From positions 1 to 64,000 of the IMG/VR virus record IMGVR_UViG_3300037420_001376: a stretch of DNA of 64,000 nt. One strand, 5' to 3'. Source of the DNA: a virus (lineage: Duplodnaviria > Caudoviricetes). Below are positions 737 to 44,559 of this stretch, in pieces (positions within the stretch are counted from its first letter, which is position 1; each line of letters starts with the position of its first letter). Below the pieces are notes generated by a model, which worked only from the letters and a program-made list of their open reading frames with translations, did not search any database and was not told the origin of the DNA. The position numbers and the translations under genes are program-made.

Positions 737-1223
737 TTTCCCTATTTTCTTTATTAACTTGTATGGCCTCTGCTACTCGCTCAGTAAGAACCAGCTTCCA
801 TGAATCACGCATAATAAGGACAATCAAAAACCACCAAATGGTAGTGAATACCCATGAGGCATAGACTTCAGAGGCAATAGCATCGATATTTTGAGCAATT
901 GCTATTAAGAATGAAGAAAAACTAGCAAACTGCCCAACGTCTGCGCCTAGCCTTAACCATAAACCCATATACCTTAATTTTCCTGGAAACTTTTTTATAA
1001 GTAACCAAGATAAAAAAGCTAGTGGAGGGCACAAGACACTTAGAACTACCCACCAAAAAAATGTTGGGTCTTCGCCAAAGTTAGGGTGATATATTCCAGC
1101 AAAAAGAATAAGTATCGCTGCAATAAAGAACCCTAGATACAGAATTGGCTGAAAAGGTAAAACCCTCCAATTAACGGAAAAGTAAACATTTCCACGATTG
1201 ACAAGCTTTTTCAGCCAATTCAT
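717..1223 (-). CDS. multi-pass membrane protein, lysis-associated
   Basis: About four hydrophobic segments; overlaps both neighbours. Confidence 0.75.
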   Translation of the reverse strand: MNWLKKLVNRGNVYFSVNWRVLPFQPILYLGFFIAAILILFAGIYHPNFGEDPTFFWWVVLSVLCPPLAFLSWLLIKKFPGKLRYMGLWLRLGADVGQFASFSSFLIAIAQNIDAIASEVYASWVFTTIWWFLIVLIMRDSWKLVLTERVAEAIQVNKENRENDESSS

Positions 1224-39651: not shown

Positions 39652-42522
39652 TCACTTTGTACCATTGTTCATACCACTGTCTGCGCTGCTTTTATCAAAT
39701 GGAATTACATTTGATCCCGTAAACTTCACATTTAAAAAGTAATTATCTACGATGCCATTTACTTTCTTTTGTTTCTGTGGAAAATCTAAAGCCTTTAGTC
39801 TCCGAGTTAATAATGGCTGCGATGCAGTATCTTTTCTTTGAATATTATTAAGATCACACCACTCAAGATATTTTATTTTTACATCTTTTGGCCTAAGATA
39901 AGATTCAACGCCAACCTTAGTTAAGCACTGAGAAGCAAAGGTTGAAATGTGATCTAAGCCGTTAACAAAATCATCTGTTTCTGCTTCAATTAATTTAGAT
40001 GTAGGCAGTTCTCCTAAGTTGCGATACTGCTTGTATCCGTCAATGAGCCATGAAAGTACGGCAGTTGCACATACGTCTTTAACGACTCTGGAAAAAGATT
40101 TATCAATGTTTCTCGGTGTAACATCGAACGGTATGACAAGCAGGCGATTGCGCAATGCTTTGTCTGCACCAGAAATTTGTGGGACGGCATTCGTCGCCAA
40201 TATGGGAACGAATTGCGGCACACCCTCAATTGTAGTATTTGACCCTTTGAGTTCAGCCTGGATCTTATCTGAACCACCAGTGAGCCTTTTGACTTGAGAA
40301 GCAGAAAGCTGATCTTTTTCGTCAAATTCAGAACATACAATGATTCGTTTGGTAAGTGAGTTTGCCAAAACTGGGTTAAGTTTGTGATTCTGAAATATAG
40401 TTTGGTTAACACTTTGCGCATAATCTCCTAACGCAGACTCAAGTGCAGAAATCATTGTTGACTTACCAGTGTTTGGATCACCCTTTAAAACGACCATAAT
40501 TTTCTCAGGATTGCCTCCAATAATGGTATGTCCTAATACCACCTGAACAATACGTTGTAGCTCAGGATCAGGCAGAAAAGTATCTAAATACTCCTGCCAC
40601 TTTTGTGCCGCAAAATCTGTTGGCTGCTCCCATTTAATGTTAGTATTTAGTGTAATAAAATCATCTAATTGAGCTTTTCGTAATCTAACTTCGTCACGGT
40701 CAAGCTCTACTACTCCATTGGCAACACCTAAAAGCATTTCATTTTTATCTAAATCGTTGACAGATATAGACACCCCAGTAATCGAGGTTGCAGCCTTCAA
40801 AGCATTTTCTGCTTGTCGATTATTTCCGCTCAGTTCCGCCCATTTTTGCCATTTTTGATACTTCGCTCTCGCTAAAATTAAATCTGCCGGTGCATTTTGG
40901 CCAGAAGTAGGTTGTCCGCCACTGATGGCAGCTTGTAATTTATTATCAAAATCAGCTTTTAAAGCATCAACATAAGCTTTTTGGCGCTCTTTTACTTTGT
41001 GCCACATTCGCCTAACTTGTTGATTTCCTAATTCATCGCGTTGCCAATGAGATTCAACATCGCTGCTACCATCATGCCAAACAATCCAGCCATAACCTTC
41101 TGCGAATCTAACAGAAGGGCCGTGAGCAAGAGAACTAAACATATCCACAAAATGTGCAGCATTACCATCGTCGTTAGTTTCATATTCTTCTATCGCCTTT
41201 AAAGCGCCTTTAGGAACATCATCTAATTCATCGGGTGGGTCTAACGATCCATCATTATCACTATCCAATGATGATAAAGAATTCCGTTGGTCAGAAGCAT
41301 CCCCAGCCAAAACGCCAGAATTATGTGATACGTCGGACCCACTAGAAACCACAGAAAGTTTCGGACTTTTCGATCCGCAGATGCCCACTTTAATGCAAAG
41401 CGGGTCCACAGCTTTTGCGCCGATTTTTCTTCTTTCGTCGGATTTCCCTTTAATCTGCCGTAGAGCCTGTATTCTGCTTCTAAAAATCTCTCCGTGAACT
41501 TCTGATAATCCACGCTTCCCGCGAGCCACGGTGATTTCTTCAAACTTTTGCTCCAACTCATTAATCGCCGCGTTCCAGCCCAAATGTCCCTCGAAGGCCA
41601 AATGGAGCAAGTTCCAGTGCGCGTTAGTGAGCTTGTCATGAGAAGTTGCCTCATCTTCAATTAACCTCAAATGTTTATCTAGTTTGGATCGCATTAATTC
41701 ACACGGCAGAGTGAAATCTCCACACGCCGTTGATTCGTCACACTCAAAAAGCTGACCGTTTTCATCTAAATCTGGATGACGGCAATCGTCTTTATGAAAA
41801 GTATCGGTAGCCCAGTCGTAAATTTCTTGAACCGCTGAATCAACATCAATAATTTCATCTTCAACGGCTAAAGTTCCACCAGAAGTTAAAAAATCTATCC
41901 ATTTTTCAGGAAGTAGGGGCATCTTTCGCGCATCTGGAAGCACCCCGTTCCACAAGGTTCGCTCGGATTTTCCAGGCGACACGGAAGGCGCAAACCACCA
42001 GTAGATTCCTCCCTCGGGGTGAATACTGGGCCAGACGACGGCAAATCGGTGTCCTTTTCGGATGACTTCGATATCTTTGTCAACCTTCCCACGAAACGCC
42101 AATCCGCGCGGTACGCGGAAATACCGAATACCACTTTTTCCATCGGTTCTTGCCGAGGAAATCCATGTCGGTGGTAAAGTCCCAAGCGTAGTCTCCAATT
42201 TTTGAAGCTGACTATAACCCTCTTTTTTCTTTCCACCTTTAGGGTAATCATCTACATCTATTCCAATCAATTCATGGTGTTCATCAACACCCGCCAGTCG
42301 AACACAAATATTATGCTTTTTACCGTCATTGCACCATTCCTCGAAGTCTTCTAGACCAGGATATGGTGCGCGTTGACCGGTGAAATCGACCGGTGGGGGG
42401 AATTTATCTTTATAAGGAATCGGCAATGGGCCTCTAAACCCAGCCTTTAAATACTTCTCATAAGTATCTTTATAAGGATTTAAAACTCTGGGAACATTAT
42501 TATTTCCATCGTTTTGAACCAA
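39652..42522 (-). CDS. DNA primase/polymerase - SF3 (D5-like) helicase
   Basis: N-terminal prim-pol motifs (GIDVDD, RYFRVP); Walker A GDPNTGKST; GGAGG RBS before TTG. Confidence 0.9.
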   Translation of the reverse strand: MVQNDGNNNVPRVLNPYKDTYEKYLKAGFRGPLPIPYKDKFPPPVDFTGQRAPYPGLEDFEEWCNDGKKHNICVRLAGVDEHHELIGIDVDDYPKGGKKKEGYSQLQKLETTLGTLPPTWISSARTDGKSGIRYFRVPRGLAFRGKVDKDIEVIRKGHRFAVVWPSIHPEGGIYWWFAPSVSPGKSERTLWNGVLPDARKMPLLPEKWIDFLTSGGTLAVEDEIIDVDSAVQEIYDWATDTFHKDDCRHPDLDENGQLFECDESTACGDFTLPCELMRSKLDKHLRLIEDEATSHDKLTNAHWNLLHLAFEGHLGWNAAINELEQKFEEITVARGKRGLSEVHGEIFRSRIQALRQIKGKSDERRKIGAKAVDPLCIKVGICGSKSPKLSVVSSGSDVSHNSGVLAGDASDQRNSLSSLDSDNDGSLDPPDELDDVPKGALKAIEEYETNDDGNAAHFVDMFSSLAHGPSVRFAEGYGWIVWHDGSSDVESHWQRDELGNQQVRRMWHKVKERQKAYVDALKADFDNKLQAAISGGQPTSGQNAPADLILARAKYQKWQKWAELSGNNRQAENALKAATSITGVSISVNDLDKNEMLLGVANGVVELDRDEVRLRKAQLDDFITLNTNIKWEQPTDFAAQKWQEYLDTFLPDPELQRIVQVVLGHTIIGGNPEKIMVVLKGDPNTGKSTMISALESALGDYAQSVNQTIFQNHKLNPVLANSLTKRIIVCSEFDEKDQLSASQVKRLTGGSDKIQAELKGSNTTIEGVPQFVPILATNAVPQISGADKALRNRLLVIPFDVTPRNIDKSFSRVVKDVCATAVLSWLIDGYKQYRNLGELPTSKLIEAETDDFVNGLDHISTFASQCLTKVGVESYLRPKDVKIKYLEWCDLNNIQRKDTASQPLLTRRLKALDFPQKQKKVNGIVDNYFLNVKFTGSNVIPFDKSSADSGMNNGTK

Positions 42523-43544: not shown

Positions 43545-44534
43545 GCTGTTGATTGAACGGGTCACAGCAAACCCGGTGAGAACACGAAAGACGGCAGAGG
43601 CATCCCCGAAGCACGCGCTCACCGGGTCTGAACTTTCATAACTCCATCGAAAAGCTTTGGGGCATGGCCCTATAACTACGGGCAACCGTAGGAAAGGCTG
43701 GCATGACACCCGGCCACTACACCCTCTCGCCTTCGGGCGAAAGGCTCTGTAGCAAACCATGCACGGCAGTCCTTAAAAATTCAACTGAGGTTGGATTTGG
43801 ATATCGACCGGAACTGTGTGAAACACCAACTAGCGTAAAAAACTAGAGTTTCAGCCATTGCGAGAATGCGGCAAGTTGGCAGCAGGGAAAAGGAAGATAA
43901 TCTTGGAGTGCGGGGAACGTTTTTAAAACTGCGAGTAGGCATACAAGTGGGCGTTTCAGGAAATTCTGGGCTAGGCAGGCATGTCTAGGAAGTACAGAAA
44001 AGTACAGAGAAAGTAGACCGCAAATCGAAATCTCCGTTGGCGTGAAGCATTCCGTAGCTTAAAAGGGTACGGAACTTCATGGGGAAGCACGTCAACAGTC
44101 CGGAGTTATCCGTTAAATATCACACGCTGTGTTAGCTCAATTTGGCGAGAGCATTCTGTTAGGGACAGAAATGTTGGTGGTTCGATTCCTCCACACAAAA
44201 AGCAAAAGTCTTTCCCCTTCGTTAACGAAAGCGTCATCTAAGCCGTAGCGCGTAAGCGAACTACGGAATCTCTGAGCCGCAAGCAATATGGGATTTTCAT
44301 AAACAAGTAGTTGTAGGCAGTGGGCGGCCACCTATTGTTGAAACGAAAGTTGTGGAGTAGTTAACGAGAGAAAACGAGTGGTTTACGTTCCCCACTAAAA
44401 ACTACTTCGGTAGGTTTGAAAAGGAAAACAAACCGGGCGTGGTGATTACAAGTGAGAGCTTGTGGAAAAGTTGCTAAACCATAAGGCAACGAAAGATCAC
44501 TAAAAGAGGCGGGTATTCTCACCGCCTCTTTTTT
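43545..44534 (+). ncRNA. large structured non-coding RNA (GOLLD-like candidate)
   Basis: ~1 kb with no credible ORF; many nested stems with cUUCGg and GNRA loops and G.U pairs on + strand; ends at a U-tract terminator. Confidence 0.75.
44126..44200 (+). tRNA. degenerate tRNA-Pro(AGG)-like module embedded in the ncRNA
   Basis: D arm GCTC/GAGC, anticodon arm TTCTG-TTAGGGA-CAGAA, T loop TTCGATT; only 5 acceptor pairs, no CCA. Confidence 0.65.
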
Positions 44535-44535
44535 A
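44501..44535. terminator. bidirectional intrinsic terminator
   Basis: AAAAGAGGCGG-9 nt-CCGCCTCTTTTTT; U tracts on both strands at a convergence point. Confidence 0.85.
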
Positions 44536-44559
44536 GTGCCTAAAATCCGATAAAACCGA

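Follow-up and report, generated by a model that had tools for sequence, protein, structure and literature searches.

GOLLD RNAs are among the largest non-coding RNAs of bacteria and phages and build RNA-only cages, resolved in published cryo-EM as 12- to 14-mers with the linker pointing into the interior. The env-38 and S. agalactiae GOLLD RNAs self-assemble into such multimeric cages (PMC12286853, PMC12990946), the 5′ and 3′ regions of the RNA being separate structural domains (PMC12286853). The linker, J13/15, sometimes holds tRNAs and lies, disordered and variable, inside the 14-mer cage (Kretsch et al. 2025, PMC12286853). A 2026 review describes a tRNA in J13/15 of Mycolicibacterium GOLLD together with an "inhibited storage" idea (PMC12990946, citing Morgado et al. 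2020), and the pseudo-tRNA in the Mycobacterium aubagnense GOLLD gave no separate transcript detectable on Northern blots (PMC6582537). A tRNA in the GOLLD linker is an already published feature (PMC12286853, PMC12990946, PMC6582537), to which the copy analyzed here adds an unusually worn example. The only part that we did not find stated in the literature examined is that erosion of the acceptor top and odd anticodons appear, from the loci compared, to be regular across lineages.

The locus studied here, on a 64,000-nucleotide stretch of phage DNA (the window), shares with the published GOLLD linker tRNAs the RNA family (191.7 bits), the position of the insert between the 5′ and 3′ domains and the phage setting, with the cage-interior location of the linker being reported for the published ones. 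It differs from them in that the insert is degenerate (acceptor 5/7, A34, T-stem mismatch), in that the RNA lies outside any tRNA array and antisense to all phage genes, and in its carrier, which is Patience-like and whose nearest isolate has no GOLLD. With the M. aubagnense pseudo-tRNA (PMC6582537) it has in common that a tRNA-like element inside GOLLD is judged non-functional; the M. aubagnense element, however, belongs to a chromosomal cluster of 32 tRNAs that derives from a phage, and the two are likened by description, not by sequence. Among the related linker elements examined, those of mycobacteria and of cluster M are His-like (GUG, AUG or 8-nt loop), whereas that of the window is Pro-like. 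Ordinary phage tRNAs have the same cloverleaf, elbow nucleotides and 7-nt anticodon loop with U33 and G37, but are free-standing, co-oriented with genes and mostly intact in the acceptor. An embedded tRNA shape with no ordinary decoding is also seen in the tRNA-like domain of tmRNA, the 3′ TLS of plant viruses and the tRNA mimics of bacterial Y RNAs. In these modules the acceptor end is functional, can often be aminoacylated and lies at a free 3′ terminus, whereas the acceptor end in the window is internal and eroded; we note the resemblance only and claim no homology.

The source record is a 72,328-bp IMG/VR virus, rated 100% complete, with 44% G+C. Its primase/polymerase (window 39652-42522, minus strand) shares 57% identity with its counterpart in Mycobacterium phage Patience (cluster U), and the phage that hosts the GOLLD is, by sequence, a Patience-like actinophage. 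GOLLD was looked for in Patience and is absent there, so that the RNA looks acquired in the lineage of the window. All 55 of the 55 ORFs of at least 120 aa (55 kb) lie on the minus strand, as do the two true tRNAs, Lys-UUU and Leu-UAA, leaving GOLLD as the only plus-strand feature; in L256, which carries the nearest GOLLD relative, GOLLD is co-oriented with its neighbours. The phage uses AAA for 63% of Lys, UUA for 32% of Leu and CCU for 27% of Pro codons, with no strong CCU bias. The ORFs flanking GOLLD gave no informative Pfam or PHROG matches, and no synteny was found between the window's phage and the L256 phage.

The large RNA in which the earlier note had placed a cloverleaf proved to be GOLLD: Rfam RF02032 matches at 44035-44525 on the plus strand with 191.7 bits against a gathering score of 150, over model positions 1-416 of 416. 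Searches with nhmmer against other GOLLD loci extend the homology upstream to about 43625, with the 5′ alignment start falling at about 43625-43656; window 43625-44537 aligns with the L256 GOLLD at 197 bits, the variable 5′ domain being present upstream, and alignments with cluster-M-type GOLLDs score 81-92 bits. The total length of about 900 nt (43625-44535) agrees with the 800-900 nt expected of the family. Its parts are as follows.

43625..44097, plus strand: GOLLD 5′ domain (nhmmer against L256 and cluster-M-type GOLLDs, pairwise alignment and Rfam alignment; 5′ boundary approximate)
44081..44086, plus strand: 5′ strand, GGGGAA, of the linker-closing helix (predicted fold; pairs with 44212-44217)
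44098..44125, plus strand: variable segment on the 5′ side of the linker, containing a small hairpin, 44101-44104/44109-44112 (predicted fold)
44126..44200, plus strand: tRNA-like cloverleaf, anticodon AGG, acceptor 5/7 paired, T-stem U.U, no CCA (ARAGORN; Rfam tRNA 41.5 bits)
44196..44209, plus strand: conserved GOLLD junction CAAAAAGCAAAAGU (upper-case consensus in the Rfam alignment; overlaps the final five bases of the tRNA-like element)
44210..44535, plus strand: conserved GOLLD 3′ domain (Rfam alignment to model positions 130-416; sequence)
44212..44217, plus strand: 3′ strand, UUCCCC, of the linker-closing helix (predicted fold and covariation)

The last hairpin of the 5′ domain, 44035-44097, corresponds to Rfam model positions 1-62, and the segment that follows it, 44098-44125, is conserved neither in length nor in sequence in the aligned relatives. 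At its 3′ end the RNA closes with the hairpin GAGGCGG (44507-44513)/CCGCCUC (44523-44529), which has a 9-nt loop and is followed by U6 (44530-44535). Across window 44503-44535 this terminal hairpin is flanked by A4 before and U6 after, and it could terminate transcription in both directions; if so, GOLLD would be shielded from antisense read-through of the minus-strand genes. A sigma-70 promoter scan around the RNA returned no sites; the terminal hairpin escaped that scan because of its 9-nt loop.

ARAGORN calls a tRNA-Pro(agg) at 44126-44200 on the plus strand, and the Rfam tRNA model RF00005 matches with 41.5 bits, where the gathering score is 29 (E 2.2e-05, in a search of the whole window, both strands, against all families); the proposed cloverleaf is thus real and at the place where the earlier note had put it. 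As drawn by ARAGORN, the acceptor, GCUGUGU/ACACAAA, forms five pairs (44128-44132 with 44193-44197), above which stand C2.A71 and G1.A72. The D stem is GCUC/GAGC and its loop contains GG; the anticodon stem UUCUG/CAGAA carries the loop UU-AGG-GA, the variable region measures 5 nt, and the T stem GGUGG/CCUCC has one U.U mismatch and the T loop UUCGAUU. No CCA is encoded at the 3′ end, where an A-run at 44197-44201 is followed by G44202 and C44203. Every structural detail that the earlier note had read off the letters (D arm, anticodon loop, T loop, U.U mismatch, five-pair acceptor, missing CCA) is recovered in this drawing. The absence of CCA is uninformative where CCA is added after transcription. 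G18 and G19, a T arm with a UUCRA loop and a 7-nt anticodon loop with U33 and a purine at 37 are all present, and five of the seven acceptor pairs of a canonical tRNA are formed. The identity set read by bacterial ProRS is G35, G36, A73 and G72 (E. coli tRNA-Pro), with G72 being required; the cloverleaf has the first three, with an unpaired A in place of G72, and its set is incomplete.

By covariance model the match is well above chance; by thermodynamics it is not, since the minimum free energy of -17.4 kcal/mol lies at z = 0.01 against shuffles. The two ordinary tRNAs of the phage stand at z = -2.9 and -2.8 against shuffles and score 66.8 and 60.1 bits with the Rfam tRNA model, compared with 41.5 for the cloverleaf. 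Descent from a tRNA-Pro(UGG) was considered and is unsupported, the body being no closer to Pro tRNAs than to those for Ile, Thr, Asn, Arg and His, to which it is about 70% identical. Wobble A34 in bacteria is normally confined to Arg-ACG, and the earlier note had argued from this against decoding. The AGG anticodon is there, but the argument is weak alone: 7/461 ordinary tRNAs of phage arrays near GOLLDs carry a non-Arg A34, as do 3/25 junction-adjacent tRNAs.

In the Rfam alignment the cloverleaf occupies the central linker of GOLLD, between the last 5′-domain hairpin and the consensus AAAGCAAAAGUCU; we score as a linker tRNA any match to the tRNA model between that hairpin and the conserved AAAGCAAAAGU, and in the window the junction starts at 44196-44200. 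The 3′ acceptor strand (44193-44199) and the discriminator (44200) continue gaplessly into the invariant junction AAAAAGCAAAAGU, and AAGCAAAAGU does not vary among 14 GOLLDs whose linker tRNAs differ and have unrelated acceptors. Because the acceptor strand runs straight into this invariant junction, we assign the AAAA and the GC that follows it (44197-44203) to the GOLLD core and not to the tRNA. It had been suggested that this GC pairs back across an AAAA bulge; the letters are as described, but the pairing is rejected, since the GC belongs to the invariant core and also occurs beside non-complementary acceptor 5′ ends in relatives. With the same GC standing next to unrelated acceptor sequences, its complementarity in the window is best read as coincidence.

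The junction is also flanked by a helix. GGGGAA (44081-44086), directly 5′ of GCACG, is predicted to pair with UUCCCC (44212-44217), directly 3′ of the junction, and the same two positions in other GOLLDs hold at least nine different complementary, covarying sequence pairs. The Rfam structure line leaves this helix unmarked; it probably corresponds to one of the helices in the published GOLLD model.

GOLLDs with a linker tRNA were collected by pattern scans of IMG/VR, metagenomes and genomes, giving about 13 lineages, and their identity was verified with Rfam. L256, L235, L251, L268, L260, L267, L285, L290 and L291 score 171-226 bits, above the cut-off, L261 scores 145 bits (E 2e-38), and L250, L253 and L271 score 96-107 bits (E below 1e-23); L274, L276, L287, L270 and L244 were accepted as GOLLD because each is nearly identical to a scored locus, and L293 from the conserved hairpin and junction alone. 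The linker tRNAs are varied: Gln-CUG in L256, the window's nearest relative; His-GUG in L290, L291 and M. alsense L293; His-AUG in L235; an 8-nt anticodon loop in the L251 group; Met-CAU in L260; Arg-UCU with encoded CCA in L267 and L244; Lys-CUU in L261; Asn-AUU in L250; Leu-GAG-like in L253 and L271; and an odd anticodon loop in L285. In all 16 of 16 the 3′ end lies no more than 6 nt from AAGCAAAAGU, and the copy of the window overlaps the junction by 1 nt.

Aligned with one another, these 16 linker tRNAs have standard pairs throughout the D stem (100%) and in 98.8% of the T stem, where the window's U.U is the sole break, and acceptor pairs 3:70 to 7:66 are standard in 79/80 cells, with pair 1:72 being unpaired in 6/16 and pair 2:71 in 8/16. 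The elbow nucleotides are invariant, while the anticodons drift. A broken top pair (1:72 or 2:71) occurs in 12/18 unique linker tRNAs versus 21/177 array tRNAs of the same loci (Fisher p = 7e-7, the counts including related sequences, so that p-values overstate independence), and both top pairs are broken in three linker tRNAs, the window's copy among them, versus 0/474 array tRNAs; a complete 7/7 acceptor is found in 82% of the array tRNAs. An A at positions 71/72 is seen in 44% of linker tRNAs versus 10% of array tRNAs, and aberrant anticodons (non-Arg A34 or wrong loop length) in 5/13 linker lineages versus 18/461 array tRNAs. The window's copy has the lowest Rfam tRNA score of the 15 linker tRNAs scored (41.5 versus 43.5-69.7 bits) and is the most eroded of the set. 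Intact linker tRNAs exist as well, with a 7/7 acceptor and encoded CCA in L267 and L244 (Arg-UCU, 69.7 bits) and in L250, and release of a working tRNA is plausible in these lineages.

The close relatives L235 and L251 are separated by two compensatory double changes in their linker tRNAs (L235:2206-2276 and L251:4622-4693), the first affecting the D stem and the second the anticodon stem, and their anticodon loops are non-canonical. The near-identical GOLLDs of L260 and L291 have linker tRNAs (L260:8396-8469 and L291:608-680) with identical acceptor strands and different anticodon arms, Met and His respectively. Such comparisons suggest either partial replacement or fast, structure-preserving change of the linker insert. 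Several of the GOLLDs have further RNA genes nearby: tmRNA genes are found at a distance of a few kb in phages of the cluster-M type and in others with tRNA arrays (L251:2657-3013, L260:6386-6734, L268:777-1170 and L236:8016-8390), and the 68.8-kb viral contig of L261 carries, near its tRNA array and GOLLD, a full-length, sub-threshold match to the archaeal RNase P RNA model (798-1046, minus strand; 54.1 bits against a cut-off of 84, E 2e-12), which may be a phage-borne RNase P-like RNA.

Among 115 GOLLD loci recovered via a 3′-end pattern, a sample dominated by few clades that gives no frequency estimate, none has a tRNA abutting the junction, and many carry tRNAs immediately upstream of the entire RNA. 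A 14-base junction word run over IMG/VR hit 118 loci, none of them GOLLD, all chance matches. Metagenome and genome scans for close relatives of the window's GOLLD returned only His-type mycobacterial relatives and L292, a chance match.

We lean, with moderate confidence, towards the reading that the cloverleaf is a non-decoding, tRNA-shaped domain that would stay covalently tethered in GOLLD and would not be cut out, CCA-tailed and charged with proline, because the core is kept while the acceptor top and a usable anticodon are lost. The kept core comprises the D arm, the T arm, the elbow nucleotides and the 5-bp anticodon stem. The acceptor top has been lost, its 3′ strand having merged with the A-rich conserved GOLLD junction, by which the terminal pairs seem to have been overwritten, and the covarying long-range helix closes the whole linker. 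Selection would keep the tRNA core and let go of the terminal acceptor pairs, with their discriminator context, and of a usable anticodon. The retained shape may be used inside the cage, for instance in engaging a tRNA-binding factor of host or phage. That the element is not a translational tRNA, as had been proposed, is probably right: it fits the two missing top acceptor pairs, A72 and the T-stem U.U, as well as the lowest score of 15, the fusion of the 3′ strand to a GOLLD segment and the recurrence of the erosion across lineages; it is not thereby proven. Against the tethered reading, the lineage of the window has one distant relative only (L256), and this copy may simply be decaying.

The cloverleaf could instead be a neutral relic, a decaying tRNA gene trapped in a permissive, disordered linker, with no present function and tolerated as filler, which we think unlikely. 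The state of the window's copy suits a relic, it being the lowest-scoring linker tRNA (41.5 bits), with two acceptor pairs lost, a mismatch in the T stem and a folding energy no better than that of shuffles (z = 0.01), and so do the disorder and variability of the linker (PMC12286853) and the lack of a linker tRNA in most GOLLDs (0 abutting the junction among the 115 loci, in a clade-biased sample). Across lineages, however, the D, T and inner acceptor pairs are 98-100% paired with many compensatory changes, double changes of this kind separate even the close relatives L235 and L251, and the 3′ end always lies at the junction, not at random positions of the linker.

That constant position favours a processing handle, in which the cloverleaf would be cut on its 5′ side by host RNase P and on its 3′ side by RNase Z or RNase E, splitting the GOLLD domains, with the anticodon being irrelevant. 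In every lineage the 3′ end of the tRNA falls where the conserved 3′ domain begins, the two regions of GOLLD form separate structural domains (PMC12286853), and the elbow nucleotides, recognised by both enzymes, are invariant while anticodons drift. We nonetheless consider a handle improbable: the acceptor top, which adjoins the cut sites, is exactly the eroded part, with two consecutive terminal mismatches in the window's copy; the covarying linker-closing helix and the conserved junction suggest a continuous strand; and no released pseudo-tRNA was detected in M. aubagnense (PMC6582537).

A working tRNA-Pro(AGG), released from the GOLLD precursor, CCA-tailed and charged, and decoding CCU for an AT-richer phage in a GC-rich host, is very improbable, for although the element passes the ARAGORN and Rfam tRNA thresholds, has G35, G36, G37 and A73, and belongs to a phage whose other two tRNAs fit the codons that it uses most (AAA, UUA; CCU being 27% of Pro), with a few non-Arg A34 tRNAs known from phage arrays, G1.A72 and C2.A71 remove the G72 identity element of ProRS and weaken it as a substrate of RNase P and the CCA enzyme, its T stem has the U.U mismatch, its 41.5 bits compare with 66.8 and 60.1 for the phage's own tRNAs, it lies on the strand opposite to every gene and both true tRNAs, and the Pro codons show no strong CCU bias.

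Going back to the tethered, non-decoding domain, a more speculative form of it, to which we give little credence, would make the erosion of the acceptor top adaptive and not decay. Fusion to the junction would block cutting by RNase P and RNase Z, and the cage would display 12-14 tethered tRNA mimics in its interior, where they might act during infection as a sponge or bait, be it for defence nucleases of the host that target tRNAs or for other factors that bind tRNA; if this were true, A34 and the odd anticodon loops would be tuned to such partners and not to codons.

The linker tRNA is the only part of GOLLD with a recognisable biochemical identity, and its state therefore bears on the role of the cage. 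The example of the window alone adds little, the cross-lineage comparison being more useful: an abutted junction, a kept core, lost terminal pairs and often unusable anticodons argue for a tethered tRNA shape over a stored working tRNA. The idea of a tethered shape can be tested in cluster M mycobacteriophages, which can be cultured.
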